Shown: positions 3,032 to 51,871, counted from the first letter of the stretch. The stretch: DNA of 64,000 nt from Candidatus Omnitrophota bacterium (GCA_030650275.1 JAUSEK010000011.1:73890-137889); one strand, 5' to 3'. Notes: a model not told the origin generated them from the sequence alone. Numbers and translations: made by a program.

Positions 3032-4000
3032 ATGCAAGCGCCGATCTTATCCATTATTTTTTCTTTTCGCAATGAGGAGCATGTTCTTCAGGAATTAATT
3101 TCACGCGTCAGGGCCGTATTGACCAAAGAAAAAGAACATAACGCCATTGCCGGATGGGAATTAATTTTTGTCAATGATGCTTCCAATGACAGGTCTTTAG
3201 AGGTCCTTTTGCGGCATGCCCAGAACACGAAAGACATTAAAATAATCACCATGTCGAGGGTTTTTGGAGTTGCTCCCTGTGTCATGGCGGGTTTGGCCCA
3301 AGCCCAAGGGGACGCGGCCATATATATGGATGCTGATCTGCAGGATCCTCCGGAATTGATCCCGGAAATGCTTAAAGCCATGCGCGAACAAAACGCCGAT
3401 GTGGTGCATACCGTGCGCCGTTCGCGTCAGGGAGAAAGCGCCTTTAAACTGTTCATTACAAAGATCGGCTACCGTATCCTCAATCGCTATTCAACAGTGC
3501 CCATCCCCCAGGAAGCGGGAGATTTCAAACTGCTTTCCCGGCGGGTCATTGACCATTTGCTGCTGCTCAAAGAGATCAATCCGTTCATGCGCGGGCTTGT
3601 GGCATGGGTCGGGTTTAAACAGGTTTTCATTGCCTATGACCGCCAGGCGCGGTTCGCGGGAAAAAGCAAATTTTTTGTGCTCGGGAAAAAGGTGATCTCC
3701 AATTTTTTAAACTCCGCCATCATCAATTTTTCTTCCGTGCCTTTGAAGATCGCTTCTTATTGCGGTTTATCTGCTATTTTAGTAAGTATCCTGTTTGCCA
3801 TGAATGCTTTGATCCAAAATATCAATGGCGCGGCGATCCCCGGGTGGACGGCCCTGATGCTGGTCATTATTTTTATCGGAGGGGTGCAGTTGTTTTGTAT
3901 CGGCATGATCGGCCTGTATTTAAATGCTGTCCACGAACAAAGTAAAATGCGGCCTAATTATATCATCGAGTCGACCTATGGGATCAACCCCCGCGCGTAA
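3032..4000 (+). CDS. GT2 polyprenyl-phosphate sugar transferase (GtrB/ArnC/DPM1-like) with two C-terminal TM helices
   Basis: MQAPILSIIFSFRNEEHVL...FVNDASND...DADLQDP motifs of GT-A GT2 enzymes. C-terminal hydrophobic segments are typical of bactoprenol-phosphate glycosyltransferases. Confidence 0.75.
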   Translation: MQAPILSIIFSFRNEEHVLQELISRVRAVLTKEKEHNAIAGWELIFVNDASNDRSLEVLLRHAQNTKDIKIITMSRVFGVAPCVMAGLAQAQGDAAIYMDADLQDPPELIPEMLKAMREQNADVVHTVRRSRQGESAFKLFITKIGYRILNRYSTVPIPQEAGDFKLLSRRVIDHLLLLKEINPFMRGLVAWVGFKQVFIAYDRQARFAGKSKFFVLGKKVISNFLNSAIINFSSVPLKIASYCGLSAILVSILFAMNALIQNINGAAIPGWTALMLVIIFIGGVQLFCIGMIGLYLNAVHEQSKMRPNYIIESTYGINPRA

Positions 4001-5018
4001 CAGTTATCACCGCCTTAAGGCCAAACTTTTCCTGACAGGGATGCTCAGCGGAAAGATCACTGTCCGCAAACTTTGGAATGTGCTCCTGTGCACCGCGGCC
4101 TATTTATTAAAAACAAAAAGATCAGCAAGCTCTCCTTTTATCCTTAGCCTTGAACTATGGAATGAATGCAACGCGGGCTGTCTTTTCTGCCGTGATAAAA
4201 AAGGGACCATTTACAACCTCAATCCCAACAACCCCACCTTAGGCAGTATCTCAAAAGGGAAAATGCCGGCTGAAATGGCCATGGACATCATCGACCAGGT
4301 CAAAAAAGATGTTTTGATCGCGGTGCTTTACACCAACGGCGAGCCGTTGCTGTATAAAGACCTTGGAAAAGTGATCCGGTTTGCCACCGAACGCAAGGTG
4401 ATGACCATGATCTCAACGAACGGCTTGTTGTTCACCGAACAGAACGCCCGAGAGATATTGGCGGCGGGACTGGACTTTATCAAGATCCAGTTGGGAGGGT
4501 TCACCCAGGACATTTACAGCATTCAGATCCGTTACGGCGAGGTTGAGAAACTTAAAGAAAATATCCGCATGGTGGCGCGCATCAAAAAAGAATTGAATAC
4601 GCCCGCTTTGATCATGATCGATTGGATTACCTATAATTATAATCGCCACCAGATCCCCTTGATCCGTCAATTCTGTCAGGAATTGGGCGTGATGTTGAGT
4701 TTCCGTCAGGGAAATCCCCGGGGAGGATTGGAAGGCAAAGAAACAGCCCTTCCGACCACGACACTTCCCATTTCTTGCGACTGGTTATGGAAAGCCATGC
4801 AGGTCAATTTCAACGGGGACATGCTGCAATGCTGTGAAGGGGTGGTCTGGAGTAATCTGAAACCATACGCCACCTACAAAGCCGGCGACAGGAATGTCCG
4901 TGAAATTTGGAACGGCCCCGCCGCCATAGCCACCCGTGAGTTGATGGCGACCAAAGGGCGTAAATCCATGCCCATCTGCAGTCAATGCCAACGTTCAGGC
5001 GTGGCATTTAAATGGTGA
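3978..5018 (+). CDS. Radical SAM enzyme with C-terminal SPASM/twitch-like Cys cluster
   Basis: CxxxCxxC motif (ELWNECNAGCLFC). C-terminal cysteines (CDW..., CCEG..., PICSQCQ) are consistent with an auxiliary Fe-S domain. Start is ambiguous (3978 or 4044). Confidence 0.6.
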   Translation: MGSTPARNSYHRLKAKLFLTGMLSGKITVRKLWNVLLCTAAYLLKTKRSASSPFILSLELWNECNAGCLFCRDKKGTIYNLNPNNPTLGSISKGKMPAEMAMDIIDQVKKDVLIAVLYTNGEPLLYKDLGKVIRFATERKVMTMISTNGLLFTEQNAREILAAGLDFIKIQLGGFTQDIYSIQIRYGEVEKLKENIRMVARIKKELNTPALIMIDWITYNYNRHQIPLIRQFCQELGVMLSFRQGNPRGGLEGKETALPTTTLPISCDWLWKAMQVNFNGDMLQCCEGVVWSNLKPYATYKAGDRNVREIWNGPAAIATRELMATKGRKSMPICSQCQRSGVAFKW

Positions 5019-5025
5019 GGGATCA

Positions 5026-6180
5026 ATGCGTTTGATACGGATTTGGACTGGAATTTTATTTGTATTGTTGGCGGCCCTTGGATTGTGGATCGCTTCCCAG
5101 AGGCCCTTATGGAACGATGAGTATTACTCTTTAATCTATATTACCTTGGGGCAGTCCTACAAAGCGATCCTCATAGGACTTCACGAAGGCGGTAATTCTC
5201 CGTTATCTTTTGTTTTACAAAAGGCGCAATGCGACCTGTTTTCTTATCATCTCCCGCAGGAATGGGTCAAAGGGCATTGGGAAGGGACCTATGTCTTTGA
5301 TCAGTTCTTTTTAAGGATACAATCAGTTGTTTTCATGTCAGCGGCCTTGAGCGCGGTATTTTATTATTTTGGACGGCGTCATTCCTGGGGCATGGGCCTC
5401 TACGCGTTAGCCGTGACCATGACATCTTTCTTGTTTTGGATCCATTGGACAGAAGCCCGGCCGTACGCGGAGTGGTTTGCTCTGAGCCTGTTCCAGATCT
5501 TATTTTTATTGAATATTTTAGAAGGCCCGGCCGATCAAAATAAAAAGAGCTGGTACGGTCTTGTTTTCATTCATTGGCTTTTGGCTTTGACGTCGATCAT
5601 CAGTGCCGTTCAAATTACGGCGGCCGGCGCGGTATTATGGATGTTCCGTCGTCCACGGCTCCTTTGGTATGTTCCCCTGGTCCTGCTCCCTCTGGGGATA
5701 TGCGGATTTTATTACATTCATTCGCCGCAATACCTCTCTTACTTTGTTGATGGTCCGGTGGCCTTAATTAATGCTAATATCTCCAAGGATCGATTATTTT
5801 TTATTTTTATGTCCGCCCTTGTTCTTATTGTTCAATGCCGGGGGAAGGATTGGAAGGCGCATTTGGAAATTAAATATTTAGCTTTTTTTCTTTTGATGCT
5901 GGGGGGCTTCGGGCTCCTGCTTTTGAAATTGAAGTATGGTCAAGGAGAAGGACAGAAAATTTTGCAAATTTCTAACCGTTATTTTTTGTCATTGACCCCA
6001 GCGGGGATCGTGGGGACCGTGCTTTTGTCGGAATATTTGATACGCGCCTTTCCGTCAAGGGTATGGAGAGCGGCGGCGATCGTGATTTTGGCCGGCTTTT
6101 TAGTTTTCCGTGCATACAGAACGATCCAACTGGTTCCCAACCAGATCTTACCTACCGGTCTAGAATTCATTAAGAGCTAA
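5026..6180 (+). CDS. Polytopic membrane protein, putative GT-C fold glycosyltransferase (ArnT/PMT-like)
   Basis: About 10 predicted hydrophobic helices, with an N-terminal TM followed by a DE-containing loop (RPLWNDEYYSL). It lies downstream of the GtrB-like gene, as in three-component Gtr glycosylation modules. Confidence 0.4.
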   Translation: MRLIRIWTGILFVLLAALGLWIASQRPLWNDEYYSLIYITLGQSYKAILIGLHEGGNSPLSFVLQKAQCDLFSYHLPQEWVKGHWEGTYVFDQFFLRIQSVVFMSAALSAVFYYFGRRHSWGMGLYALAVTMTSFLFWIHWTEARPYAEWFALSLFQILFLLNILEGPADQNKKSWYGLVFIHWLLALTSIISAVQITAAGAVLWMFRRPRLLWYVPLVLLPLGICGFYYIHSPQYLSYFVDGPVALINANISKDRLFFIFMSALVLIVQCRGKDWKAHLEIKYLAFFLLMLGGFGLLLLKLKYGQGEGQKILQISNRYFLSLTPAGIVGTVLLSEYLIRAFPSRVWRAAAIVILAGFLVFRAYRTIQLVPNQILPTGLEFIKS

Positions 6181-6200: not shown

Positions 6201-6229
6201 TTGACAGGGGAAAGAGAGAGTTTATAATT
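6201..6229 (+). promoter_or_regulatory. Consensus sigma70 promoter: TTGACA, 17-bp spacer, TATAAT
   Basis: cTTGACAggggaaagagagagttTATAATtgg. Perfect -35 and -10 hexamers at optimal spacing in one of the few intergenic gaps. Confidence 0.6.
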
Positions 6230-7898: not shown

Positions 7899-10061
7899 AT
7901 GGCAAAACAACAAAGAATGATCATCACAGGCGTCAGCGGCCTTTTGGGCAATAATCTCGCCCTTTGCCTGAAGGATGATTACACCATTTTAGGATTGTTC
8001 CATCAGCATCCCTGCGCCATTGAAGGCAATAGGCTTGAGCGGGTAGATTTAACGGACCCGGACCGGGTTAGAACTGTCGTCAGGGAGTTTCAACCAGATG
8101 TTATTATCCATTGCGCGGCCCTTTCGGATATCGAATATTGCGAAAGTCATCAGGATCTGGCCACCAAGGCCAATGTTCTGGCAACACGCCATCTCATCGA
8201 AGCCATTGACCAGACCCCCTGCCAATTTATTTTTATCTCAACAGATTCTATTTATGATGAGACCAAGGGTCCTTTGATCAATGAACAGGGAGCGGTCAAT
8301 CCTTCCAATCATTATTCATGGACAAAGATCGAAGCGGAAAAAGAGGCCTTAAAGCATAAAAATACTCTTATTCTAAGGACCAATATTTTTGGCTGGAATA
8401 TCCAGGAAAAATTCAGTTTAGGCGAGTGGATCATCCACGAACTTTCGCATCAGACCAAGATCAAGGGGTTCAGCGACGCTGAATTTTCATCCATTTATAC
8501 TTTTGAACTGGCAAAGCTCATTGACCGCGCCATCCAAAAAAAGATCCGGGGGGTTTACAATGCCGCCAGCCGCACGCATTTGTCAAAATACCAATTTGCC
8601 CGCGCGATCGCCCGGCGCTTTCAACTGGATGAGACATTGATCGAGCCGATCCCTATCGGTGATTTTGCTTTTAAAGCCAAACGCCGGAAGTTCATGGCTT
8701 TGGACACAGGCAAAATACAGCGGGCTTTGAATGTTCCGTGTCCGACCATTGAAGAATGCATAGAGAAGTTCTATCAGGATCATCAAAAAGGAGTGCCTGC
8801 CAGGATCAAACAAGGCCGGCAGGGGAGCGTTTATCCGCAACTTGATTTTATTCCTTATGGGCGTCAGTGCATTGAAGATGATGATATCCGGGCGGTGACG
8901 GATGTTTTAAAATCAGGGTATCTGACGCAAGGGCCCAAGATCGCGGAATTTGAAGAGGCATTGAAAGCAAAGACCGGCGCTTCATTTGCCGTTGCCGTCA
9001 ATTCCGGAACGTCTGCTTTACACATCGGCTGTCTGGCGGCCGGTATTCATGCCGGCGATGAGGTGATCACCTCGCCCAATTCGTTTGTGGCGTCCGCCAA
9101 TTGCATCGTTTATTGCGCAGGCACGCCGGTTTTTGCCGATATTGATCCCAAGACCTATAATATTTCCCCCCTGGCGCTCGAGCAGAAAATGACAAGGGCC
9201 ACCAGGGCCGTCATCCCTGTTCATTTTGCCGGCCAAAGCTGTGATATGCAGGCGATCCATGATATTGTCCGGCAAAAACAGAAGGAATACGGCCACAAAA
9301 TTTATATCATTGAAGACGCTTCCCATGCGTTGGGGTCCTCTTATAAGGCCAAGAAAGTCGGGTCCGGCGCGTATTCGGACATGACGGTCTTGAGTTTTCA
9401 TCCGGTCAAACACATCACCACGGCCGAAGGGGGCGCTGTCCTGACCAATGACGAGAAATTATGCCATTCCTTAAGACGGTTTCGTTCCCATGGGATCACC
9501 AATGATCCCCTGGAATTGGTCAATGAGGATGAGGCCTTTGAGCCCTCTCACGAGGGGGAACGGATCAAGCGGCCCTGGTACTATGAGCAGCAGGATTTAG
9601 GGTTCAATTACCGGATCACGGACATTCAGTGCGCTTTAGGCATTTCCCAGATCAAGAAATTGGACCGTTTTATAAAGCGCAGAAAAGAGATCGTCGGGCG
9701 TTACAATGCCGCTTTTGAAGGGCTTGATCATGTCACGACACCCTTTGAAGCCGATTTTTGTCAAAGCAATTTTCATCTCTATGTTTTGCTGTTTGATTTT
9801 GGGAAATTGGGGATGTCCCGCGCGCATTTGATGCTTGAGTTGCGCAAAAAGGGCATTCAAACGCAGGTGCATTACATTCCCATCCCCACGCAGCCCTATT
9901 ATCAAAAGAAATTCGGATACCGACGGGGTCAGTATCCCCATGCGGAGAATTATTATCAGCGCTGTTTATCGATCCCTCTTTTCGCCGCGATGAAGGACGA
10001 GGAGGTCGGGAAGGTCATTGAAGCCATTCGTAGTTTAAAACCGGTCCCCGTCCACCCATGA
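7899..10061 (+). CDS. pseC: Fusion protein: N-terminal RmlD-like NAD(P)-dependent 4-ketoreductase domain (~300 aa) plus C-terminal PseC-type DegT aminotransferase (~410 aa)
   Basis: N-terminal domain has GxxGxxG (ITGVSGLLG) and YxxxK (NHYSWTK), with the RmlD substrate-binding pattern STDSIYDE...NP.N.Y. C-terminal domain matches recalled PseC strongly (SHALGSSYKAKKVGSGAYSDMTVLSFHPVKHITTAEGGAVLTND...RSHGI). 720 aa total. Confidence 0.75.
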   Translation: MAKQQRMIITGVSGLLGNNLALCLKDDYTILGLFHQHPCAIEGNRLERVDLTDPDRVRTVVREFQPDVIIHCAALSDIEYCESHQDLATKANVLATRHLIEAIDQTPCQFIFISTDSIYDETKGPLINEQGAVNPSNHYSWTKIEAEKEALKHKNTLILRTNIFGWNIQEKFSLGEWIIHELSHQTKIKGFSDAEFSSIYTFELAKLIDRAIQKKIRGVYNAASRTHLSKYQFARAIARRFQLDETLIEPIPIGDFAFKAKRRKFMALDTGKIQRALNVPCPTIEECIEKFYQDHQKGVPARIKQGRQGSVYPQLDFIPYGRQCIEDDDIRAVTDVLKSGYLTQGPKIAEFEEALKAKTGASFAVAVNSGTSALHIGCLAAGIHAGDEVITSPNSFVASANCIVYCAGTPVFADIDPKTYNISPLALEQKMTRATRAVIPVHFAGQSCDMQAIHDIVRQKQKEYGHKIYIIEDASHALGSSYKAKKVGSGAYSDMTVLSFHPVKHITTAEGGAVLTNDEKLCHSLRRFRSHGITNDPLELVNEDEAFEPSHEGERIKRPWYYEQQDLGFNYRITDIQCALGISQIKKLDRFIKRRKEIVGRYNAAFEGLDHVTTPFEADFCQSNFHLYVLLFDFGKLGMSRAHLMLELRKKGIQTQVHYIPIPTQPYYQKKFGYRRGQYPHAENYYQRCLSIPLFAAMKDEEVGKVIEAIRSLKPVPVHP

Positions 10062-13605: not shown

Positions 13606-15681
13606 GTGTACTTTATTGAAAAATTAACAGTTTATTCGTGGTTGTTTTCTGTTCTTCCCGAGATCCAGCGGCGATCCAAGGCGGATAAAGATCAGGGGAA
13701 TACGCTTTTATATTATGTGGATGCGTCTTGCCAGGGGCTATGGTTGTCCCGATCGATGGCGGCTTTTCTTAAAATTGAGATCAAGCGGCTGGATTTCACT
13801 TTTTTTGACGCTAAAGACAAAAATGGCGATTTTCTTTGGTGGACAGTCATGTTTGAGGATCTTGCGGATCTGCAGAAATATATGTTCCGGTATCCGGCCT
13901 TACAGGAGATCATCCAGAAGAATAAGGCGGATGAGCACCTAAGGTTTTTTCTGATGAGACGTATTTTGTATTTTGATTCAAGCCTGTTTATCTTGATGCA
14001 CATTCTCCTGGTGCTCCGGGTCGCTTCTTTAAAGCGGAAAAAAGAGGAAAGGATCAACGTGTTCCTTTTTTCCTCCCAAAGGCCGTGGCTGTCCCAGGTC
14101 AAGAAATGGGCGGAGGCCCGGAATGTCAATATTATTCCCATGCGCCGGGGGCGCGGTTTTAGCGTCAAAGAGATCATGGCAGGCCCCGGTTTTATCAAAC
14201 ATTCCATCAAACAAGTCCTGTTCGCCTGGATGGGCACGCAAAAGGCCCTTGGAATGGCGGGTCAGGGCGATCAGAGGCATAGTCAGGACCTGTCACCCAA
14301 GATAGCCGTTGAATTTTATGGACATCTTAATCTTGATTCCCCGCAATTGAGCTCGGACCTATTTTTCTGTCAACAGGCAAGCACCTTGAATAAAGATATC
14401 CTGATCTATTTTCAGCATCCGGTGTTCCCGGTCTCGGATCAAGCGTGGGATGAGATCAAGGCGCATGGGATGTCAGCGGTTGTTATGAATCCCAGGGCAA
14501 CCACCACCTCCCGGGTCCCTTTATTCAATTATGTCGGTCAGTTGAGAGAAGAAGACCGCTCCAGGGGGGCAGCCGATGACAAGGGTAAGGATGATATCAG
14601 AAGAGATCTGTCCCGACAGGTCGCAGAATATTATAAACAGAAGGATTATTGGTCCAATTTCTTTGCGCGGCACAACATCAAAATGCATGTGTCGTGGTAT
14701 AAGATCGAATCCAAATATTTTCCGATGGCGGATGCTTTGAATGGCTTGGGAGGGGTATCTGTTATTTATCAAAGGTCTTTTGAAAGCGATTCAAATCCAT
14801 GGATGGTGACGAAAGCGGACGTTGTTTTTGGTTTTTCCAAGTTTGGGGCGCATTTGGGAAAAGACACGGATTCTGTGATCCCTTATTATGTTGTCACGGG
14901 CTATTTGGGAGACCACCGGTATCCAATTCTCAAAAAAGAAGCAAGCGTGATACGCCATGATCTGCAGCGTCATGGGGCCAATAGGATATTGGCCTATTTT
15001 GATGAAAGTTCCGTAGATGATCCGCGATGGAATATAGGGCATCAGGTGACGCAGGAGAATTACGCGTTCTTGCTCAAGAAAATCTTGGACACACCATCGC
15101 TCGGATTGATATTTAAGCCAAAGATATATTCAAATTTACGCAAAAGATTGGGGGAGGATATTGCCGATCTTTTGGATCGCGCCCAAGAGACGGGGAGATG
15201 TTATATATTTAAAGAAGTCGCGTTTCATCTGGGATCGCACCCTCCCGCGATAGCGGCATTGGCATCAGATATCGCCATTCATGGCCATCTTTGCGCGGCA
15301 ACAGCGGGCGTTGAATCAGCTTTGACGGGAACACCGACGCTGATGCTGGACAGGGAAGGTTGTTCCAAGAGCCCGGTCTATCAGTTAGGAGAAGGCCGGG
15401 TTGTTTTTAAAAATTGGGATGATCTCTGGAAAGCATGCCTTGATCACTGGGGCCATTCAGACGGGAGGCCCGGTTTTGGCGATTGGTCGCCGATGTTGGA
15501 TGAGCTGGACCCATTCCGCGATGGCCGGGCGGCCCAACGGATGGGCAGCTATCTTGAATGGATCTCCCAAGGGTTAAAAGCAAAGATCCCCCGCGAAATG
15601 ATTCTGGCGGATGCCGCCCAGCGATACGCCAAGATCTGGGGGCAGGACAAGGTATTGGCCATCAATCATGGCAGGTTATAA
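13606..15681 (+). CDS. Large (691 aa) hypothetical protein; C-terminal region has a GT-B/MurG-like donor-binding motif (possible PseG-type UDP-sugar hydrolase or nonulosonate transferase)
   Basis: C-terminal HGHLCAATAGVESALTGTPTLMLD resembles the G-rich loop/E/GxP motif of MurG/PseG-type GT-B C-domains. The N-terminal ~400 aa has no motif I recognise. It sits where pseG would be expected. Confidence 0.3.
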   Translation: MYFIEKLTVYSWLFSVLPEIQRRSKADKDQGNTLLYYVDASCQGLWLSRSMAAFLKIEIKRLDFTFFDAKDKNGDFLWWTVMFEDLADLQKYMFRYPALQEIIQKNKADEHLRFFLMRRILYFDSSLFILMHILLVLRVASLKRKKEERINVFLFSSQRPWLSQVKKWAEARNVNIIPMRRGRGFSVKEIMAGPGFIKHSIKQVLFAWMGTQKALGMAGQGDQRHSQDLSPKIAVEFYGHLNLDSPQLSSDLFFCQQASTLNKDILIYFQHPVFPVSDQAWDEIKAHGMSAVVMNPRATTTSRVPLFNYVGQLREEDRSRGAADDKGKDDIRRDLSRQVAEYYKQKDYWSNFFARHNIKMHVSWYKIESKYFPMADALNGLGGVSVIYQRSFESDSNPWMVTKADVVFGFSKFGAHLGKDTDSVIPYYVVTGYLGDHRYPILKKEASVIRHDLQRHGANRILAYFDESSVDDPRWNIGHQVTQENYAFLLKKILDTPSLGLIFKPKIYSNLRKRLGEDIADLLDRAQETGRCYIFKEVAFHLGSHPPAIAALASDIAIHGHLCAATAGVESALTGTPTLMLDREGCSKSPVYQLGEGRVVFKNWDDLWKACLDHWGHSDGRPGFGDWSPMLDELDPFRDGRAAQRMGSYLEWISQGLKAKIPREMILADAAQRYAKIWGQDKVLAINHGRL

Positions 15682-33991: not shown

Positions 33992-35209
33992 ATGAAAGAT
34001 ATCGGTCAGGGGCCAATAAGGAAGTTATATCAGTGTCTTTTGGTCCCTCCGGCTGTCCTGATCGCCATAGGTATACGGATATTGCGGCCATTGATCGTTG
34101 TGCGATGGGGAAGGATCGACATCGCAAGGATAGGCGGAATATACCGGGCGGATTGGTACCTGTCTTTGTATCATGGCCGCATGTGCAGGGATAAATACTT
34201 TGATATTTTTTACTTCGATTGGTCCGGGGTCGTCGGCAACAGCCAATGGTGGGCGATGTGGAAGCGAGTTTTGCGTATTTTTCCATTCGGAGGATTGGCA
34301 AAACTCGTCGGGAGGATATCATGCATATTGCCAGGGGATAAGCTTTACATTGTTCCGGTGATGGATGCCACTCCATCAACGATCAGCGAGCATCAAGATA
34401 TTCTTAAGCGCATCCTTGAACATAAAGAACCTAATGTTGCTTTTACTCCGCAAGAAGAGCATTTTGGCCATCAAGAGATTCGGGGGTTAGGCATACCAGA
34501 AAAGGCCCCCTTTGTCTGTTTTCATGCCCGCGACGCGGCATATCTGGACGCCGTATATCCTGATAGAAGTTGGGGTTATCACGATTATAGAGATTCCAAT
34601 ATTTTTAATTATCTTCCTGCGGTCGAAGGACTTGCCCGGCGAGGTTACCATGCGGTTAGAATGGGCAGCACGGTGAAGGACAGGTTGCCCGCGTCGAACG
34701 CGGCCATTATCGATTACGCCGCCAATGGAAGCCGAACAGATTTTTTGGATGTTTATTTAGGAGCTAAGTGTCATTCTTTTTTATGCTCCGATACCGGGAT
34801 GTCTATTATCCCGGAGGCCTTTAAGCGTCCTGTTGTTTACGTGAATTGGGTCCCGATCCAGCGGATATCGATCTGGGTTTCAAACGGGATATTCATCTTC
34901 AAAAAATTCTACTCTGTGAGCAAAAAGCGTTGCTTAACGTTTAGTGAAATAATTCAGTCCGGCCTGGGGAACTGTTGGGATGGCAGAGATTTTGAAAAGA
35001 ATGAAATAGAATTAAGAGAGAATAGCCCGGAAGAGATCATGGCGCCGGTCTTTGAAATGGAGGATCGTCTTAAGGGCAAGTGGAAGGCTGGGCCTGAAGA
35101 CGAAGAGCTGCAGAGGCGTTTTTGGGCATGTTTAGGGTGGGATAATCTAAATCCTAACGTAAGGATCGGGGCCGAATTTTTGCGTCAAAATCAGGATCTC
35201 TTGAACTGA
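33992..35209 (+). CDS. Hypothetical protein, putative glycosyltransferase of the TIGR04372-like family (distant KpsS/KpsC-like); paralog of 39303-40901
   Basis: No classic GT motif I recognise. Shares conserved blocks with the 39303 paralog (VCFHARDAAYLD / VCLHVRESGWND; IDYA; VVYVNWVP / VVMTNCLP). Family assignment is from memory and uncertain. Confidence 0.35.
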   Translation: MKDIGQGPIRKLYQCLLVPPAVLIAIGIRILRPLIVVRWGRIDIARIGGIYRADWYLSLYHGRMCRDKYFDIFYFDWSGVVGNSQWWAMWKRVLRIFPFGGLAKLVGRISCILPGDKLYIVPVMDATPSTISEHQDILKRILEHKEPNVAFTPQEEHFGHQEIRGLGIPEKAPFVCFHARDAAYLDAVYPDRSWGYHDYRDSNIFNYLPAVEGLARRGYHAVRMGSTVKDRLPASNAAIIDYAANGSRTDFLDVYLGAKCHSFLCSDTGMSIIPEAFKRPVVYVNWVPIQRISIWVSNGIFIFKKFYSVSKKRCLTFSEIIQSGLGNCWDGRDFEKNEIELRENSPEEIMAPVFEMEDRLKGKWKAGPEDEELQRRFWACLGWDNLNPNVRIGAEFLRQNQDLLN

Positions 35210-35286: not shown

Positions 35287-37023
35287 ATGAAGATTTTAGT
35301 TGTCGTCCCCAAGTATGAACCAGATATTGAAAAAACAGGAGCGCCGTATTTCTTACCATTAGGGCTCATGTATGTTTCATCCTATTTGAAACAAAAGGGT
35401 TTTGATGTCCAGAATTTGAATCTTAACCATTATACAGATAATAAATTGCGGACGGTCCTTCAAGAGCAACCGTTCGACGCGATTTGTACGGGAGGTTTGT
35501 TTACGGAAATCAAACCTATTATGACCGTGATCCAGACAACGCGTGATGTGCGGCCCCATGCAAAAATAATTCTGGGAGGCGCTTTGGCCAGCGGGGACCC
35601 TGAATTTGCTTTGGAAAAAGTTGGCCCGGATTTTTTGGTATTAGGAGAGGGAGAGGCAACGTTGGCGCATCTTCTGGGTACCCTTAGAGATGGTTTGGAT
35701 TTAAAAGAGGTTAAGGGGATCGCCTATTTGAAAGATGGCACTATGTTCAAAACGTGCGGCCGGGAACTGATCTCGGATCTGGATAGTCACCCCTGGCCTG
35801 ATTATGAAGGTTTTGAATACAGGCATCACCTTGATCATCATTATGAAAAGGATTCATGTTTTGAAACGGTGATGGATCCTGCAAAACGGCGTATCGCCAA
35901 CATCATTACGAGTAGAAATTGTGTGGCCAAATGCACTTTTTGCTATCGGTTGATGACGGGCGGCCATCGGGTTCGCACCATTGAGAACGTTATGAAAGAA
36001 GTCAAGTTTTTGATGGATGAATACGGTGTTAATGAAATCAATTTGATCGACGAGATGTTTGCCAATGACAAACAACGTATTTACGATTTTTGTGAAGGGA
36101 TCAAACCGCTCAATGTCCGTTGGCAATGCCAGTTGAGATGCGGCGTTATTGATGAAAATGTGTTAGCGGCAATGAAAGACGCCGGTTGTCGTTATATCAG
36201 TTATGGATTTGAAAGCGCCAGTAAAGAGGTTTTAAAAAGTATGAAAAAAGGGCTTCACCCGACACAAATTGACAATGTTATCCGTTGGACATTAAAAGCA
36301 GGCATCACGATCCAAGGGAATTACATATTCGGGGACCCGGCCGAGACTTTAGGGACGATGGAAGAGACCCTTCGTTTCAGGCGGAGATTCCCGGCGCTTA
36401 ATTTGGGGATGTTTATGATCATCCCCTATCCCGGGACAGTCCTTTACCACGATTTAAAGGCAAAGGGAAGGTTTGAAAACCTGTATGATTTTTACATTAA
36501 CCCAAGTTCGGTGTTTCAGGGCAGACCCTTGAATATGACTAAATTGTCCGAAGACGATTTTGATTATATGTGTAAGAAGGTTTGGCATGAGGGAATTGTC
36601 TCGGTTGCTTATACAAAGATCCTCGGATCCAAACATCTTGATAAAATGACTTCATTGGTCAGTTATAAATGTCCCCATTGCTTAGAAATGCATAAAGACA
36701 TACCGATAACATTTTCTGGCAATGATGCGGAAACCCGTTTCTGTAAAAAATGTCTTCAGAGAGTGCATATAAAGAAATCATCCGTGTATTTTGATCTATA
36801 TGCCAAACTTCGCGAGTTTTATCACTACGCCATAGTCACCCCGGTCCTTATTCATCCAAAAGTTTATAAGACATGTAATCCTTTAATCAATCTTTTTAAA
36901 GGAACCGGAAAGATCGGGAAATTGATCAAACTATGCTTAAAGACAAGCAGACCTAAGGTGGTCCCTAAATTTCAAACTACGGCTTTAGAATTGCAAGGAG
37001 AGCTGGTGGCGTCTAAGGCATGA
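35287..37023 (+). CDS. B12-binding-domain radical SAM enzyme (class B radical SAM, methyltransferase-like) with C-terminal Cys4 ribbon
   Basis: N-terminal B12-binding Rossmann (KILVVVPKY...ICTGGLF). CxxxCxxC (SRNCVAKCTFC). C-terminal CPHC...CKKC. Confidence 0.8.
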   Translation: MKILVVVPKYEPDIEKTGAPYFLPLGLMYVSSYLKQKGFDVQNLNLNHYTDNKLRTVLQEQPFDAICTGGLFTEIKPIMTVIQTTRDVRPHAKIILGGALASGDPEFALEKVGPDFLVLGEGEATLAHLLGTLRDGLDLKEVKGIAYLKDGTMFKTCGRELISDLDSHPWPDYEGFEYRHHLDHHYEKDSCFETVMDPAKRRIANIITSRNCVAKCTFCYRLMTGGHRVRTIENVMKEVKFLMDEYGVNEINLIDEMFANDKQRIYDFCEGIKPLNVRWQCQLRCGVIDENVLAAMKDAGCRYISYGFESASKEVLKSMKKGLHPTQIDNVIRWTLKAGITIQGNYIFGDPAETLGTMEETLRFRRRFPALNLGMFMIIPYPGTVLYHDLKAKGRFENLYDFYINPSSVFQGRPLNMTKLSEDDFDYMCKKVWHEGIVSVAYTKILGSKHLDKMTSLVSYKCPHCLEMHKDIPITFSGNDAETRFCKKCLQRVHIKKSSVYFDLYAKLREFYHYAIVTPVLIHPKVYKTCNPLINLFKGTGKIGKLIKLCLKTSRPKVVPKFQTTALELQGELVASKA

Positions 37024-38409: not shown

Positions 38410-39309
38410 ATGGTCCCCAAAACAGCCATCATCGGAGCATCAGGATTTATCGGAAAGGCCCTTTTATCTCTCCATCGCGAGACGCATCCGGACTGTGTCG
38501 GAACGGCTTTGAACCGATTGAAGGGAGATTTGAAACATCTGGACCTGCTTTCCTGCGACATTGCTTCCTTAAAACTTGCTGAGTCCGGGCATCAGGATGC
38601 GATCATTACGGCAGGGATAGCACGGATCCATGTCCCCCAGAAAGAAAAAGAATATACAAAAAAAGTCACCCAAGGGACGTTAAAGATCATTCAACAGCTT
38701 GTGGATGAAGGGATCAAGCCCATATACATTTCCAGTGAATGTGTTTTTGATGGACGCACGGGAAACTACGACGATGACGCGCCGGTGAACCCGATCAACG
38801 GATATGGACAACAGAAGGCGGAAATAGAACAAGGCATCCGGGAAATTTCTAAAGGCAGGTATCTGATCGCCCGGTTCAGCAAGGTTTTTACCATTGAAAA
38901 GAAAGATGGATCTATTTTTGATGAAATGGCGGCCGCGTTGACATCAGGCGGCACAATACGCGCGGCATACGATCAAATTTTTTCACCGACGCTTTTGTCT
39001 GATGCCATCAACGCCCTGAAAATATTACAAACGAAGAACGCGACAGGGATTTTTAACATCAGCACGACCGAAGTGTGGTCACGGTATGATCTAGCTTTAA
39101 TAATGGCCGATCATTTAGGGGTCGGCCATGAAAAAGTTGAGAAAATATCCCTGGATGATCTTAAGGAGGTCATCAATAATGAAGTTTTTAATCGTCCCAA
39201 GAATACGAGTATGAATGTCATGAAATTGATCAGGGAAACAAAGAGCACGTTTACGCCGATCTCCCAATGCATGGAGATCATAGCGAAAAATTGGACAACC
39301 CCATGTTGA
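38410..39309 (+). CDS. RmlD-like NAD(P)-dependent 4-ketoreductase (dTDP-4-dehydrorhamnose reductase family)
   Basis: IIGASGFIGKAL...SSECVFDG...NPINGYGQQK (YxxxK) pattern. Confidence 0.65.
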   Translation: MVPKTAIIGASGFIGKALLSLHRETHPDCVGTALNRLKGDLKHLDLLSCDIASLKLAESGHQDAIITAGIARIHVPQKEKEYTKKVTQGTLKIIQQLVDEGIKPIYISSECVFDGRTGNYDDDAPVNPINGYGQQKAEIEQGIREISKGRYLIARFSKVFTIEKKDGSIFDEMAAALTSGGTIRAAYDQIFSPTLLSDAINALKILQTKNATGIFNISTTEVWSRYDLALIMADHLGVGHEKVEKISLDDLKEVINNEVFNRPKNTSMNVMKLIRETKSTFTPISQCMEIIAKNWTTPC

Positions 39310-40901
39310 TCTCTTTCCTTCGGCGTCAGATGCTCCACATGAAAGAGGGGGGCATGCGCGTTTTTGGTCAAAAGGTAAGAAATTTATTTAAGTTCTTATA
39401 TATGAGCCTCTTGGCCCCGGCGGCTGTTTGCCTAAAAATTGATTGGCCTGAGGCCTATTATTTTGTTTTGCTTCGTATGTATAAGCAACATAAAGACATT
39501 TGTTTAAATCCTGCCTGTGACAGCAATTTAAGCAAGCGTATTAAATTAAAAAGAAAGATCGTTTATTGTATTAAAAAATACATCGCGCATGAACCGAGTT
39601 TGACTGATCTTTCCGTTTTTATATCAGCGAGCACCCTCCTGATCAATTTTTGTTATACCGGTCAAGAATTCGTAAGATCCATGGGTATTTTACGGAATAC
39701 TGAAAAAATGAGACGCCGGATATTGAAAGATCACCAATTGGATGAGCTTGGTTTTGAATTTATTCCCAGGGCTTTTGCCACAGGGAGCATCGGCGCCTGG
39801 GAGATCCTCGGGGTCCATATAAAAATGGGGATCCTTGGATTGAAGACCCCTAAAAAATTGGTGTTATTGCTTGATCCTGAAAGTCGTGTTAATAATCCCT
39901 GTTATTTAAAATACTGGCGCCAGTATATCACTGTTATCTCTGATCCATTATTGATTCAGGCGCTTTCTCCTTTGGAAAAATGCATGACCGTTCCGATCAA
40001 TTATTATATGTCGTTCCAAGGAAGGGTCATGTTGAGCCCGCAAGCCCTTGGATTCGTGCGAAAACAATGGAATGAAGAAAAGCGTCCGGCTCTTCTCAAG
40101 CTTTCCGATGATGATTTTGTGAAAGGATGGAAGCGCTTAAGCTCTTTAGGCGTCCCGAACCACGCATGGTTTGTCTGTCTTCATGTGAGAGAATCAGGAT
40201 GGAATGACAATAGCCACGCGGGGAACTTTCGCAATGCGGATATTAAGACCTATGTGCCGGCCATAAAGGCCATTGTTGATGCCGGGGGGTGGGTGGTCCG
40301 TATGGGAGACCTCGGAATGACCCCATTGCCGCCGATGGACCATGTGATCGATTATGCCCATAGTGATGCGAAAAGCGATTGGATGGACATTTTCTTGTGT
40401 TCGCAATGCCGTTTCCTTGTAGGAACATCTTCGGGAGTGCATACAATATCTTTAGTTTTCGGCGTACCTGTTGTCATGACAAACTGTTTGCCGGCCGCGG
40501 CGATGTACCAGTTCACTGTGAATGACCTGTTTATCCCAAGGCTTTGTCTGTCTAAAGATGACGATCATTATCTAAGTTTCCGTGAATTGATGTGTCCTCC
40601 TGTCAGCATGGGTGCCGAGCAGTATGTTTATGACAGGCTTAATCTTAAAGTCATGGAAAATACACCGGAAGAGATCAAGGATATCGTGATGGAAATGTTG
40701 ATGAGGGAAAGCGGCACTATTCAATATAGTCAAGAAGATGGATCTCTGCAGGAGCAGTTCAGGTCTTTGTCAGCCCGTTGCGGTGCATTATACGGAGATG
40801 ACGATATTGTTGTCCATGCCAGGATGGGGCGGGATTTTTTGCGAAAATATGCCGGGCTTTTACCCGTTGGTATGATGGAAGAATGCCGGAATAAAGGATA
40901 A
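39303..40901 (+). CDS. Hypothetical protein, second TIGR04372-like putative glycosyltransferase with N-terminal extension
   Basis: Paralogous blocks with the 33992 protein (see there). Start is uncertain (39267/39303). Confidence 0.35.
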   Translation: MLISFLRRQMLHMKEGGMRVFGQKVRNLFKFLYMSLLAPAAVCLKIDWPEAYYFVLLRMYKQHKDICLNPACDSNLSKRIKLKRKIVYCIKKYIAHEPSLTDLSVFISASTLLINFCYTGQEFVRSMGILRNTEKMRRRILKDHQLDELGFEFIPRAFATGSIGAWEILGVHIKMGILGLKTPKKLVLLLDPESRVNNPCYLKYWRQYITVISDPLLIQALSPLEKCMTVPINYYMSFQGRVMLSPQALGFVRKQWNEEKRPALLKLSDDDFVKGWKRLSSLGVPNHAWFVCLHVRESGWNDNSHAGNFRNADIKTYVPAIKAIVDAGGWVVRMGDLGMTPLPPMDHVIDYAHSDAKSDWMDIFLCSQCRFLVGTSSGVHTISLVFGVPVVMTNCLPAAAMYQFTVNDLFIPRLCLSKDDDHYLSFRELMCPPVSMGAEQYVYDRLNLKVMENTPEEIKDIVMEMLMRESGTIQYSQEDGSLQEQFRSLSARCGALYGDDDIVVHARMGRDFLRKYAGLLPVGMMEECRNKG

Positions 40902-50095: not shown

Positions 50096-51871
50096 TTGGC
50101 CGGCTGTAAAATCCATATTCTTTCAGGCCTTACTCATCGCAATGTCCCACTCAATTCGAATGGGATATTTTTCTTTTGCTCCCGCAAGCTTTCCCGCGCC
50201 GAGATCCGGGTCATCCGCTCCACAGGCCTCAAGAGGTATTATTTAAAGCCCTTATCAGCAGGGCAAGAACAAAAGTTTTTTTCCGCTTTCGGGGAGTTAT
50301 GGGAGAAGGTGGTCAAGGGCAAGGGCGCCGATGACCCCTTTTGGCGTAATGGTGTTTCTTCCAAGATGCAGGAATGGGAAAATTCAGCCGGGTATTTAGC
50401 CGTCACTCTTTTCGCCTTATCGCAAGACCCCCTGCTTGCGAAAACGGAATTGATCGTTTTACCCGACAGCGTTGAGGAAGCTTCGGTATGGCGCGCCTGG
50501 GGCTTGGCGCATGACTGGACCGTTGTTTCGTATACATTCGGTTTATGGCAGGGGATCAGGCAGGAGTTGGAGAATGGGATGAGGGCTTTACGTCTGGCCG
50601 GCCTTTTTCTTAGGAAGAAATGGCGCGCGCGGCCGCGGACTTTTCAAATAAGGCCGGGGGCTTTTTTAGTCGTGACATTGTTTTACCGTCGGGTTTTTGA
50701 TCGTCAAGAATATGAAGACCTGTTCTTTGGAGATCTGCGCAAAGAGAATGCCCGTTCGGAACGGGACATCTTTTATTTAGGGGACGCGATCGACGGACTT
50801 GAAAGCGGTGACCAAAAGCGAATGGGAAAAGAGAGCTGGCCGGTCAGTATTTACAGCCTGTTGTCCTGGCCCGATATGTTCGCGGGGTTGTCATCCGTGC
50901 TCATGGGGAGACCGCGTTTTGTCGGTTGTTCTTTTGCGGGCGTGGACTTTTCCGCTGTCCTGACGTGGCACGCGCGCCGGTCCCGCTATGATCATAACTT
51001 GACCGCCGAGTTTTTTTATCGCGCTGTGCGTCGGGCGTGTCAGAGATGCCGTTTTGATAAAATGCTTTTCGCCTTTGAGGGAAACGCGTATGAGCGCGCG
51101 GTGATACAGGCTTTCCGCCGGATGGGACACGGCGTGATCGACGCCTACAGCCACGCGGTGATCTATCCTTTAAATCTTAAATTATATCTTTCGGTCTCCG
51201 AGATCGCCCGGGCCCCGCAACCGGATCGTTACCTGGTCTGCGGCAGTTGGGTTCGGGACGCGTTCATGCGCGTCAGGCGTGTACAGGTGCCTGTGATCAG
51301 TGTTTGTTCTTTGAGGGCCATCCCCAGGACCATAGAACGGGCCGTAACTCAAAAGGAAGAAATTTTAGTGGTTTTAGACGGGGTTTGGTCCACGGTCCAT
51401 CTGGTGAACTGGCTCTATGAGAACCGGAATATTTTTACAAAATATAAGGTCTTCATCAGGCCCCATCCGAATGTGAACGGCCCGCGTCTTTTCAGCCAGT
51501 GCCCGCAATATCAAGAAGGGGTATTTGCTATTTCCAACCGGTCCCTTCAAGAGGACCTGCGGCAGGCGGCGTGTGTGCTCTATAGACAATCCTCCGTGGG
51601 AGTGACGGCCCTGATGAACGCGGTCCCTGTGATCCATTTGAGAATTGACCTGCCGCTTTCCGGGGATCCATTGGAAGGCCTGGAGGCGGGCAAGCTCTGT
51701 GTGGAAGATGCCGAAGGTTTAAGGCAGGCATTGCTTCGCATCCCTGATCTGCAGGCACAGCTCAATGATGATCAGGGGAAGGCCATTGACATCGCGCGTC
51801 ATTATTTTGACGCCTCTTCTTCAGAGCTGATCCGGCCTTTTTTAGAAATTTTTCCTTTAGCACGTTCTTGA
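50096..51871 (+). CDS. Hypothetical protein (591 aa), no confident family
   Basis: Long ORF with consistent codon usage in the operon. No motif I recognise. Possibly glycosyltransferase-like. Confidence 0.3.
   Translation: MAGCKIHILSGLTHRNVPLNSNGIFFFCSRKLSRAEIRVIRSTGLKRYYLKPLSAGQEQKFFSAFGELWEKVVKGKGADDPFWRNGVSSKMQEWENSAGYLAVTLFALSQDPLLAKTELIVLPDSVEEASVWRAWGLAHDWTVVSYTFGLWQGIRQELENGMRALRLAGLFLRKKWRARPRTFQIRPGAFLVVTLFYRRVFDRQEYEDLFFGDLRKENARSERDIFYLGDAIDGLESGDQKRMGKESWPVSIYSLLSWPDMFAGLSSVLMGRPRFVGCSFAGVDFSAVLTWHARRSRYDHNLTAEFFYRAVRRACQRCRFDKMLFAFEGNAYERAVIQAFRRMGHGVIDAYSHAVIYPLNLKLYLSVSEIARAPQPDRYLVCGSWVRDAFMRVRRVQVPVISVCSLRAIPRTIERAVTQKEEILVVLDGVWSTVHLVNWLYENRNIFTKYKVFIRPHPNVNGPRLFSQCPQYQEGVFAISNRSLQEDLRQAACVLYRQSSVGVTALMNAVPVIHLRIDLPLSGDPLEGLEAGKLCVEDAEGLRQALLRIPDLQAQLNDDQGKAIDIARHYFDASSSELIRPFLEIFPLARS

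Follow-up and report, generated by a model that had tools for sequence, protein, structure and literature searches.

A conserved GtrB-type glycosyltransferase and radical SAM gene pair beside a GT-C-fold membrane protein in an Omnitrophota bacterium suggests a possible route to tailored lipid-linked sugars

Introduction

Lipid-phosphate sugar donors are a universal strategy in extracytoplasmic glycosylation, as in the Gtr and Arn systems, mycobacterial arabinan and protein O-mannosylation. O-antigen glucosylation by Gtr involves a flippase (GtrA), a synthase (GtrB) and a serotype-specific GT-C glycosyltransferase, and related systems of Gram-positive bacteria include CsbB/GtcA/YfhO and PgfS/PgfM. 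Tailoring of the donor is combined with GT-C transfer in ArnC-ArnD-ArnT and in the Francisella system FlmF2-NaxD-FlmK. To our knowledge, every enzyme known to tailor lipid-linked donors is either a hydrolase or an oxidoreductase that depends on flavin or NAD, and none is a radical SAM enzyme. ORF13 of C. youngae O2, an SDR epimerase, tailors a lipid-linked monosaccharide donor in a system with a GT136 GT-C, and mycobacterial DprE1/DprE2 provide a precedent for tailoring a lipid-linked donor (PMC11127046).

The chemistry of ORF13 and DprE1/DprE2, in which oxidation and reduction lead to epimerization, is an outcome that a radical SAM enzyme resembling BtrN or HygY could also deliver. BtrN is a 2-deoxy-scyllo-inosamine dehydrogenase, and NeoN and HygY are other radical SAM enzymes that act on sugars. 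The substrates of these enzymes, and of DesII and BlsE, are soluble aminocyclitols or nucleoside/nucleotide sugars, not lipid-linked sugars. In the HpnH/HpnI/HpnJ pathway of hopanoid side chains, a GT2 attaches a sugar to a lipid, where it is reshaped by a B12 radical SAM enzyme; radical SAM chemistry on a sugar that a GT2 put on a membrane lipid thus has a precedent.

Omnitrophota are a phylum of uncultivated nanobacteria, some of them host-dependent, and their envelope is essentially uncharted. Here we analyze a 64-kb stretch of DNA (64,000 nucleotides, hereafter the window) from an uncultivated Omnitrophota bacterium, in which a preliminary description had noticed a radical SAM gene between genes for a GtrB-like GT2 and a GT-C-like membrane protein, had suggested by analogy with BtrN-type enzymes that the radical SAM enzyme could oxidize or epimerize the lipid-linked sugar, and had known of no described parallel. 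Our search agrees with the last point: we found no description of such a GT2-rSAM(-GT-C) arrangement in the searchable literature (rSAM, radical SAM enzyme). As in Gtr systems, a full-length GtrB homolog is followed by a polytopic GT-C-fold protein; here, unlike in those systems, an rSAM is interposed and is more conserved than any other partner of the synthase.

Results

The three genes are densely packed on the plus strand at positions 3032–6180 of the window, and all three co-directional reading frames are real. The GT2 gene occupies 3032–4000. The longest reading frame of the rSAM gene extends from 3924 to 5018, and homologs support a start at the ATG at 3978; translated from there (3978–5018) the protein has 346 amino acids, is 100% identical to P0001, and its gene overlaps the end of the GT2 gene by 23 nt. 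The pair is probably translationally coupled. The membrane-protein gene (5026–6180, encoding 384 amino acids) begins 8 nt past the rSAM stop. The 3' boundary of the module is a plus-strand sigma-70 promoter consensus at 6201–6228 (TTGACA-16-TATAAT, matching at 12 of 12 positions), located in the 82-nt gap upstream of a MarR_EPS gene. Both MarR_EPS and PseB genes were identified downstream of the module, and the consensus appears to mark a separate transcription start for a pseudaminic-acid/glycan cluster.

The GT2 is a true member of the GtrB/ArnC type, as had been proposed. It matches PF00535 (E = 7e-28) and aligns with the Synechocystis GtrB sll0501 (5EKP) over residues 6–318 of 322, including the C-terminal transmembrane region (E = 1e-71), and with ArnC structures over residues 6–314 (E = 1e-28). 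It has a GT-A domain with a DXD-type motif, and its DADLQDPPE motif is identical to the aligned stretch of 5EKP. A hydropathy scan finds transmembrane segments in the reading frame. The GT-A domain is cytoplasmic, and two transmembrane helices lie at the C-terminus. The best NCBIfam match is PgfS (231 bits), and ArnC also matches (120 bits); both matches are full length and both lie under the equivalog cut-offs (500 and 529 bits, respectively). By this homology the protein is predicted to be a polyprenyl-phosphate glycosyltransferase that transfers sugar from a nucleotide sugar to polyprenyl phosphate.

The second protein matches the radical SAM model PF04055 (E = 4e-13) and the SPASM model PF13186 (E = 5e-8). 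Its CX3CX2C motif (C64-X3-C68-X2-C71) is invariant in 30 sequences, and the core of its AlphaFold2 model (pLDDT 82.6) matches radical SAM structures, which confirms the radical SAM core. Further invariant cysteines in the alignment are C233, C267, C285, C286, C334 and C337. In a profile alignment C267, C285, C334 and C337 fall on the auxiliary-cluster ligands of BtrN, and C233 and C286 are additional. We rejected an assignment to full SPASM, because the CX2CX5CX3C motif is absent and the protein ends only 9 residues past C337: beyond the core there are only C267, C285/C286 and C334-X2-C337, and the PF13186 match spans a shortened version of the domain. The twitch pattern (C...C...CXXC after the core) is present, and the NCBIfam model N_Twi_rSAM gives a partial match to the same region. 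Thus the auxiliary cysteine cluster of the preliminary description stands and its SPASM label does not; judged by its cysteines, the C-terminal domain is a BtrN-like twitch (truncated SPASM) predicted to hold one auxiliary cluster.

The likeness to BtrN that had been drawn also holds up at the level of sequence and fold. BtrN is the best PDB match of the rSAM profile (E = 1.3e-10, 44 bits, over both core and twitch), followed by BlsE, and the leading Foldseek matches of the model are DesII, SuiB, BlsE and BtrN, with RiPP enzymes (SuiB, SkfB) mixed among sugar enzymes in the fold ranking. Similarity is remote–about 16% identity to BtrN, and 14–17% with TMq 0.50–0.58 for the solved sugar-acting relatives–and the enzyme is only distantly related to any that has been characterized. 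No NCBIfam model reaches its cut-off. It differs from BtrN, BlsE and DesII by about 45 extra N-terminal residues, forming two short conserved basic helices in the alignment and model, as well as by the invariant C233 and C286. Many Arg and Lys residues are also invariant. We found 161 homologs, and the best 120 of the 161 are all at least 51% identical.

The 384-residue membrane protein has about 11 transmembrane helices, a predicted cytoplasmic N-terminus and no large periplasmic domain. Sequence searches with it gave no match in Pfam or NCBIfam at E ≤ 0.01 and none in the PDB at E ≤ 10. Its AlphaFold2 model (pLDDT 88.5, pTM 0.89), in contrast, has only GT-C enzymes at ranks 1–27 of the Foldseek search of the PDB, with probability near 1 and TMq 0.39–0.61 at marginal E-values (1e-3 or worse); they include Pmt4 (TMq 0.61), AftA, STT3, ALG9, ArnT, DPY19, PglB, AftD and Emb. 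Matches outside GT-C, to unrelated transporters, come after these at TMq of about 0.15. Among 30 homologs, the motif W29-x-D31-E32, which opens the first external loop, is invariant (D31-E32 in 28 sequences); in the model D31-E32 lies directly past TM1 (helix 2–25), at the start of helix 30–40. Other invariant motifs are E143-x-R145-P146-Y147 and R318-Y319. The predicted fold and the acidic motif support placement in the GT-C superfamily, as first suggested, while the GT-C HMM signature, whose lack had been named beforehand as grounds for rejecting the proposal, is absent, and it is the fold prediction alone that rescues the assignment. Compared to PMT/GT39, ArnT/GT83, PglB/STT3, ALG and Aft/Emb enzymes, the protein shares the predicted fold and the D31-E32 position in external loop 1, but it is very small, has no soluble periplasmic domain and matches no sequence family. 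It would represent an unclassified minimal GT-C family with a DE motif, which has about 30–60 members, nearly all in Omnitrophota-type metagenomes. A neighboring distant paralog at locus L032 scores 25.4 bits against PMT_2, for which the cut-off is 26.1.

Comparison of gene neighborhoods upheld one part of the proposed three-gene module, the GT2-rSAM pair, and not the other, since the GT-C partner varies between genomes. Of 26 species-level loci, nearly all from Omnitrophota, about 21 have a GT2 ortholog (52–93% identical) directly upstream of the rSAM gene and a further 3 have one no more than 3 kb away, so the two genes are adjacent or near each other in about 24. Their reading frames often overlap. 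The genes flanking the pair differ from locus to locus, and the identities of GT2 and rSAM to the window proteins covary across loci (r = 0.79); on these grounds the arrangement is not due to chance. The contexts are glycan clusters, not lipid-biosynthesis clusters. The conserved core is thus the GT2-rSAM pair, with GT-C as the variable component, just as the synthase is conserved and the GT-C varies among Gtr clusters.

The complete order GT2-rSAM-GT-C recurs at only three other loci (L041, L042 and L050), where the rSAM is 93–98% and the GT-C 60–82% identical to the window's. At L005 (rSAM 92% identical), the pair is directly upstream of MarR-PseB and the window's GT-C family is absent. In a set of 60 metagenome loci, this GT-C family lies behind GT2-rSAM in only 3; in about 20 it is straight behind a methyltransferase-GT2 fusion (MT-GT2), often as tandem paralogs. 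The GT2 of the fusion is of the polyprenyl-phosphate type, and L050 contains both MT-GT2 and GT2-rSAM-GT-C. No MT-GT2 ortholog is present in the 64-kb window. Because the GT-C family normally follows a polyprenyl-phosphate-type synthase fused to a methyltransferase, a synthase plus a tailoring activity and then a GT-C is a recurring design.

More distant rSAM relatives have surroundings typical of soluble sugar tailoring, in which no GtrB-type GT2 is present. A distant relative, P0238, is fused to two soluble GT2 domains. In some Omnitrophota lineages a B12-rSAM partner is fused or adjacent to members of the rSAM family; it has weak matches to HpnJ (85–93 bits), far under the cut-off.

A nearby precursor peptide, which would have pointed to a peptide-modifying enzyme, was sought in 30 loci and no conserved one was found: apart from frames inside the GT2 and rSAM genes, small ORFs were common to at most 4 of the 30, and those common to several are shadow ORFs of a B12-rSAM gene. 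The rSAM itself has no peptide-recognition domain that we could find, its N-terminal extension being just the two helices. A hydropathy scan of the 64-kb window gave no GtrA-like flippase candidate (small ORFs of 90 amino acids or longer with several TM helices were absent), in which the locus differs from Gtr, and no small flippase gene is conserved beside GT2-rSAM at other loci.

Discussion

We tentatively favor, at somewhat under even probability, a reading in which GT2-rSAM is a conserved two-gene cassette that makes a radical-tailored lipid-linked sugar donor, which a GT-C then transfers. On the cytoplasmic face, the GtrB-type GT2 would load polyprenyl (undecaprenyl) phosphate with a sugar taken from a nucleotide sugar. 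The twitch rSAM would cleave SAM to give a 5'-deoxyadenosyl radical and take a hydrogen from a ring carbon of the lipid-linked sugar. The sugar radical may then be oxidized by a BtrN-like auxiliary [4Fe-4S] cluster, giving a keto sugar, or it may take back a hydrogen on the opposite face from one of the conserved cysteines C286 and C233, giving an epimer. A flippase would carry the modified donor across the membrane, where a GT-C–here the 384-residue protein–would pass the single sugar to a membrane-proximal periplasmic acceptor, probably the glycan of the adjacent cluster. We infer the order of the first two steps, the substrate, the chemistry, the flippase, the acceptor and the use of this donor by this particular GT-C. 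Among the points that weigh against the reading, gene order does not give reaction order, and GT2-rSAM usually has neighbors other than the GT-C family of the window. The remoteness of the rSAM from characterized enzymes, the lack of a GtrA-like candidate in the 64-kb window and the absence of a GT-C HMM signature count against it too.

The layout parallels the ORF13, DprE1/E2, ArnD and NaxD systems in running from polyprenyl-phosphate synthase to sugar-changing enzyme to GT-C, though the rSAM has no sequence relationship to any known donor-tailoring enzyme. With BtrN it shares the CX3CX2C core and the C-terminal twitch. In the Hpn pathway, unlike the window, the lipid is a hopanoid, HpnI is not GtrB-like, and there is no GT-C transfer step.

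The rSAM could instead tailor a soluble nucleotide sugar (by oxidation, epimerization, deoxygenation or decarboxylation), which the GT2 would afterwards load for the GT-C, a sequence of events that we consider rather unlikely. DesII and BlsE, which use nucleotide-linked substrates, are among its closest folds, its distant relatives sit amid soluble GT2s, SDRs, methyltransferases, acyltransferases and Asn-synthase-like genes, P0238 is fused to soluble GT2 domains, and the invariant Arg and Lys residues would suit a substrate of either kind that carries a (di)phosphate. Yet in the core orthogroup one neighbor alone is universally conserved, the GtrB-type GT2, which is membrane-bound and whose frame often overlaps that of the rSAM; genes of nucleotide-sugar pathways show no such conservation, a modified soluble nucleotide sugar would be expected to go with Leloir glycosyltransferases too, and the basic N-terminal helices are weakly compatible with binding at a membrane surface. 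It is very improbable, in our judgment, that the target is a lipid and not the sugar, for example that the polyprenyl carrier or a different membrane lipid gains a 5'-deoxyadenosyl group or a cross-link at a double bond, as in HpnH or Tes/GDGT-MAS chemistry, and is glycosylated by the GT2. The twitch domain can be aligned with BtrN's, and the genomic contexts speak for glycans. The N-terminal helices are hydrophobic as well as basic. HpnH is matched weakly, at 27.8 bits and with the N-terminal helices inside the aligned part, as is the tetraether synthase Tes/GDGT-MAS, at 37.8 bits in NCBIfam and at E = 8e-6 for 7tol, but these matches are far under the family cut-offs and weaker than the match to BtrN. 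A peptide or protein maturase (RiPP-type or metalloenzyme), with GT2 and GT-C glycosylating its product or unrelated to it, is scarcely credible: SuiB, SkfB, PqqE and EpeE are among the fold matches and the top NCBIfam matches are maturase families, but at 50–54 bits against cut-offs of 380 or more, the 30 loci share no conserved small ORF, the extension of about 45 residues is too short for a peptide-recognition element, and the sole conserved partner is a GtrB-type GT2.

A different objection concerns the GT-C, which may have come to lie beside a GT2-rSAM cassette through recombination at a hypervariable glycan locus. It would then use the donor of another synthase (for example an MT-GT2 elsewhere in the genome), and the cassette's product would go to other variable GT-Cs. 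The preference of this family for MT-GT2, the arrangement at L005 without such a GT-C and the presence of both synthases at L050 are all in keeping with this, and the rSAM being far more conserved than the GT-C at the three other complete loci fits cassette exchange. We nevertheless think it decidedly unlikely that the three genes are not one module. The rSAM-paired GT2 is the only polyprenyl-phosphate-type synthase near the GT-C in the window, just 8 nt separate the rSAM and GT-C genes, the strong promoter comes after the GT-C gene and not before it, and the gene order is repeated at three more loci despite the divergence of their GT-Cs. Furthermore, GT-Cs can be promiscuous towards related donors, as with ORF12 (PMC11127046).

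On the cassette reading, the module suggests a new, still unproven route by which a sugar is altered before its attachment to the cell surface. If this is true, radical chemistry joins the means of diversifying lipid-phosphate sugar donors, and GT2-rSAM could bring to light a new kind of rare sugar on the Omnitrophota cell surface. A bolder proposal, which we regard as possible and on balance doubtful, is that the rSAM would be the first of its superfamily to act on a polyprenyl-phosphate-linked sugar, diversifying donors on the carrier by radical oxidation, epimerization, deoxygenation or C-C chemistry; the B12-rSAM partner may add a second radical step in some Omnitrophota lineages, and the cassette may feed a large GT-C repertoire that is as yet unclassified. 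Aside from the cassette, the analysis exposes the minimal GT-C family itself and the recurrent coupling or fusion of a polyprenyl-phosphate synthase to a tailoring activity ahead of a GT-C. Large and diverse polytopic membrane proteins are encoded less than 8 kb from GT2-rSAM at most loci. One of them has C-terminal TPR repeats, a feature of TMTC-type GT-Cs, and a Pfam GT87 (GT-C) gene lies directly 3' of an rSAM relative that is 32% identical to the window's.

A GtrB-type synthase gene overlapped by a radical SAM gene

Three closely packed genes lie on the + strand at window positions 3032-6180. The first (3032-4000) encodes a GT2 glycosyltransferase (PF00535, E = 7e-28) that matches the structurally characterised polyprenyl-phosphate glucosyltransferase GtrB of Synechocystis (5EKP) with E = 1e-71 over residues 6-318 of 322, including the C-terminal membrane region, and ArnC with an alignment E-value of 1e-28. 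The catalytic stretch DADLQDPPE is kept. The nearest NCBIfam models are PgfS and ArnC, and the protein misses both equivalog cut-offs, so these matches do not name the transferred sugar. The second gene, for a radical SAM enzyme (rSAM), is an ORF at 3924-5018 whose homologue-supported start at 3978 gives a 346-residue protein and a 23-nt overlap with the GT2 gene. Beginning 8 nt past its stop codon is a gene (5026-6180) for a polytopic membrane protein of 384 residues. Both of the latter proteins are 100% identical to NCBI entries of a Candidatus Omnitrophota MAG (P0001 for the rSAM and P0121 for the membrane protein; P-numbered handles denote homologous proteins, and L-numbered handles the genome and metagenome loci compared).

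The gap between the membrane protein gene and the next gene, for a MarR_EPS regulator, is 82 nt long and contains a perfect sigma-70 consensus (TTGACA-16-TATAAT, 12/12 matches, at 6201-6228), thus separating the three genes from the cluster downstream. This predicted promoter suggests that the pseudaminic-acid/glycan cluster is transcribed separately.

The radical SAM enzyme has a twitch domain related to that of BtrN

The preliminary description had labelled the second protein a radical SAM/SPASM enzyme. Its Pfam matches (PF04055, E = 4e-13; PF13186, E = 5e-8) make it a radical SAM enzyme, but its cysteine pattern does not fit the second half of this label. In an alignment of 30 family members with 50-80% identity to the window protein, the invariant cysteines are C64-X3-C68-X2-C71 together with C233, C267, C285, C286, C334 and C337, the protein ends nine residues past C337, and the canonical SPASM motif CX2CX5CX3C is not found. 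The best PDB profile match is BtrN (E = 1.3e-10), aligned over core and C-terminal domain alike, and C267, C285, C334 and C337 align with the four cysteines that bind the BtrN auxiliary cluster. The missing SPASM motif and the aligned ligand cysteines together mark this as a twitch domain with one predicted auxiliary cluster; C233 and C286 are invariant cysteines beyond the BtrN ligands.

The second PDB sequence match is BlsE, a cytosylglucuronate decarboxylase. The AF2 model (pLDDT 82.6) comes closest in fold to DesII, SuiB, BlsE and BtrN (TM-scores 0.50-0.58), and peptide-modifying enzymes are mixed among the sugar enzymes in this ranking. The closest characterised relatives are thus sugar-tailoring radical SAM enzymes, remotely related. 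Neither the rSAM nor its more distant relatives score above the cut-off of any NCBIfam model.

The membrane protein resembles GT-C glycosyltransferases

The membrane protein belongs to a small family, with 30 matches in a search of 5.8 billion proteins and members at 60 metagenome loci. Invariant in the family are W29-x-D31-E32 directly past the first transmembrane helix, E143-x-R145-P146-Y147, and R318-Y319. Its AF2 model (pLDDT 88.5, pTM 0.89) has about eleven transmembrane helices and a long first external loop. Ranks 1-27 of a Foldseek search of the PDB are exclusively GT-C glycosyltransferases (Pmt4 with a TMq of 0.61, AftA, STT3, ALG9, ArnT, DPY19, PglB, AglB, AftD, EmbA/B, ALG3 and Pmt1), followed by unrelated transporters at a TMq of about 0.15, and the Asp-Glu pair occupies the position of the catalytic acid in PMT, ArnT and PglB. 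Because of this exclusive ranking and the Asp-Glu pair, GT-C is the only reasonable assignment for the modelled fold, despite marginal Foldseek E-values (1e-3 at best). The GT-C character proposed beforehand is therefore upheld at the level of predicted fold but not as an HMM signature, since Pfam, NCBIfam and PDB profile searches gave no match; the model describes a predicted, unclassified minimal GT-C that lacks a periplasmic domain.

At locus L032 the homologue of this protein is followed by a 349-residue membrane protein (8109-9158) that scores near the PMT_2 threshold (25.4 versus 26.1 bits) and has GDD past its first transmembrane helix and EFRPYA, resembling the invariant E-x-R-P-Y. It may link the window GT-C family to PMT_2-type GT-Cs at the sequence level.

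The conserved unit is the GT2-rSAM pair

In all, 161 members of the rSAM family could be detected; the best 120 listed share 51% identity or more with the window protein. Scanned with one genome per species, the family yielded 26 loci, nearly all from Omnitrophota MAGs or PVC-labelled bins. At about 21 of the 26 an orthologous GT2 (52-88% identity) directly precedes the rSAM, often in an overlapping frame, and at L014, L018 and L022 it lies within 3 kb. Only L012 and loci truncated at a contig end lack it. The genes flanking the pair vary widely, and the identities of GT2 and rSAM to their window counterparts co-vary (r = 0.79). It is therefore the GT2-rSAM pair that forms the conserved unit.

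In L018 (5794-7935) and L022 (5818-7907) two genes without a Pfam family, coding for about 300 and 400 residues, stand between GT2 and rSAM. They are joined by minimal gaps or overlapping frames, so they may be additional components of the pathway.

The third gene is variable

The preliminary description treated all three genes as one module. They are indeed packed together in the window, but the window GT-C family is absent from 26 of 26 genome loci in the pair survey. At L005, for example, where the rSAM is 92% identical, the pair is directly followed by MarR and PseB genes, with no GT-C of the window type. A profile of the GT-C family searched against all ORFs of 30 rSAM loci gave a single weak N-terminal match (L016, E = 1e-6), so at other loci the pair has polytopic neighbours from different families. 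Most pair loci have between one and four such proteins within 8 kb, large and highly diverse (360-1145 residues, 7-18 predicted transmembrane segments). Almost none of them matches Pfam. There is an acyltransferase_3, a protein with C-terminal TPR repeats as in TMTC-type GT-Cs, and one with a weak match to the possibly carbohydrate-binding F5/8-type C domain. They are candidate GT-Cs.

The window GT-C family has another habitual neighbour. Its members, often as two tandem paralogues, stand immediately behind a 467-residue methyltransferase-GT2 fusion (MT-GT2) at about 20 of the 60 metagenome loci (L031, 504-4311; L033, 4103-8161; L044, L046, L048 and about 15 further loci), and the MarR-PseB genes known from the window often come next after this block. 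The closest solved relatives of the GT2 domain of the fusion are the polyprenyl-phosphate enzymes DPMS and ArnC, making this a second design in which a synthase plus a tailoring activity precedes a GT-C. The order GT2-rSAM-GT-C recurs only in L041 and L042 (rSAM 98% and GT-C 82% identical to the window proteins) and in L050 (93% and 60%), where an MT-GT2 is also present further upstream. We read the head of the glycan locus as a swap site, both for cassettes of a polyprenyl-phosphate sugar synthase plus a tailoring activity and for GT-Cs. The 64-kb window has no MT-GT2 orthologue, so the rSAM-paired GT2 is the only candidate donor synthase near the GT-C there.

Distant relatives and a B12-binding partner

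Searching 1.84 billion cluster representatives yielded 157 at E <= 1e-30. In three of these relatives (P0159, at L034 2154-4649; P0151; P0169) a B12-binding radical SAM enzyme is fused N-terminally to the twitch enzyme. Orthologues of the fused B12 enzyme adjoin the pair in at least four species (L002/L017, 9939-11390 in L002; L013, 11600-13048; L008, 39-1607; L016, 4987-6495). This recurrent fusion and adjacency points to a two-step radical tailoring. The window has its own B12-rSAM (35287-37023, 578 residues), which we rejected as a partner of the pair because it is only 23% identical to the partner enzyme elsewhere; it adjoins methyltransferase and RmlD-like genes inside the glycan cluster.

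At L036 (51-2405) a 32%-identical relative (P0176) has a Pfam GT87 gene 37 nt downstream; GT87 is a recognised GT-C family. The L036 contig is high in GC and ends just upstream of this relative. P0238 is a relative fused to two GT2 domains. Relatives at a still greater distance lie in sugar-tailoring clusters that contain soluble GT2s, SDRs, methyltransferases, acyltransferases and an Asn-synthase homologue but no GtrB-type GT2. In its broader membership the rSAM family is thus associated with glycans, and only the core Omnitrophota group pairs the enzyme with a GtrB-type synthase.

What the radical SAM enzyme may act on

In the proposed mechanism the GT2 would load a sugar onto polyprenyl phosphate, the rSAM would tailor it, and the GT-C would transfer it. 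A missed precursor peptide would instead point to a RiPP maturase. We compared ORFs of 20-110 codons at 30 loci. Beyond the GT2 and rSAM coding regions, no such ORF was common to more than four loci; those that were shared were shadow ORFs of the B12-rSAM gene or came from same-species duplicates. A RiPP role is therefore unsupported and we rejected it, in line with the original expectation. The N-terminal 45 residues of the rSAM, two conserved and partly amphipathic basic helices in the alignment and AF2 model, are below the size of a peptide-recognition element. Weak matches to HpnH and tetraether synthase would fit a reaction on the lipid, which we consider less likely than one on the sugar. 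If the sugar is the substrate, the rSAM could act before the GT2, as DesII and BlsE act on nucleotide-linked sugars. We favour action after the GT2, on the lipid-linked sugar, because the exclusive conserved partner is a membrane-bound GtrB-type synthase, because the two genes overlap, and because nucleotide-sugar pathway genes are not conserved with the pair. The three components and the GT2-rSAM pairing are solid; the tailoring mechanism in the form stated is a well-motivated hypothesis to which we give slightly less than an even chance.

The window module shares its logic with the Gtr/CsbB/Pgf three-component systems and the Arn pathway. Conceptually nearest are systems in which an auxiliary enzyme alters a lipid-linked sugar ahead of GT-C transfer, such as DprE1/E2 and the SDR epimerase ORF13 of Citrobacter youngae O2 (PMC11127046), and in none of them is that enzyme a radical SAM protein. 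In the searchable literature we found no description of such a pairing, whether in connection with GtrB, undecaprenyl phosphate, a GT-C or Omnitrophota, which agrees with the initial impression that no such arrangement had been described.

The surrounding glycan cluster

A co-directional glycan cluster of about 57 kb fills the rest of the window. Among its genes are MarR_EPS, PseB, an RmlD-PseC fusion, a cytidylyltransferase, GNATs and a NeuB/PseI homologue, as well as heptose-pathway genes, several SDRs, DegT aminotransferases, a sugar C-methyltransferase, a carbamoyltransferase, the B12-rSAM, ABC transporter components, a GT4 and a Wzy_C/O-antigen-ligase-like protein. The putative natural role of the synthase/GT-C module at the head of this cluster is periplasmic decoration of the cluster product with a single sugar. 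The 64-kb window showed no small GtrA-like membrane protein, and an Rfam scan of it returned no families. Four large cluster ORFs of 405-691 residues (13606-15681, 33992-35209, 39267-40901 and 50096-51871) match no Pfam family at E <= 1e-5.

The RmlD-PseC fusion, unusual in a pseudaminic-acid pathway, is a single ORF of 720 residues (7899-10061) with an RmlD-like reductase at residues 6-294 and a PseC aminotransferase, scoring above the TIGR03588 cut-off, at 317-712. Upstream of the three genes, positions 540-2972 encode a stand-alone B12-binding plus activation half of MetH and a Peripla_BP_2 binding protein. MetE and/or MTHFR genes occur at other Omnitrophota loci (L032, 2773-5713; L033, 260-1162; L004, 10927-11808), so that genes of the methionine/SAM cycle recur beside SAM-consuming glycan modules in the window and at these three loci.
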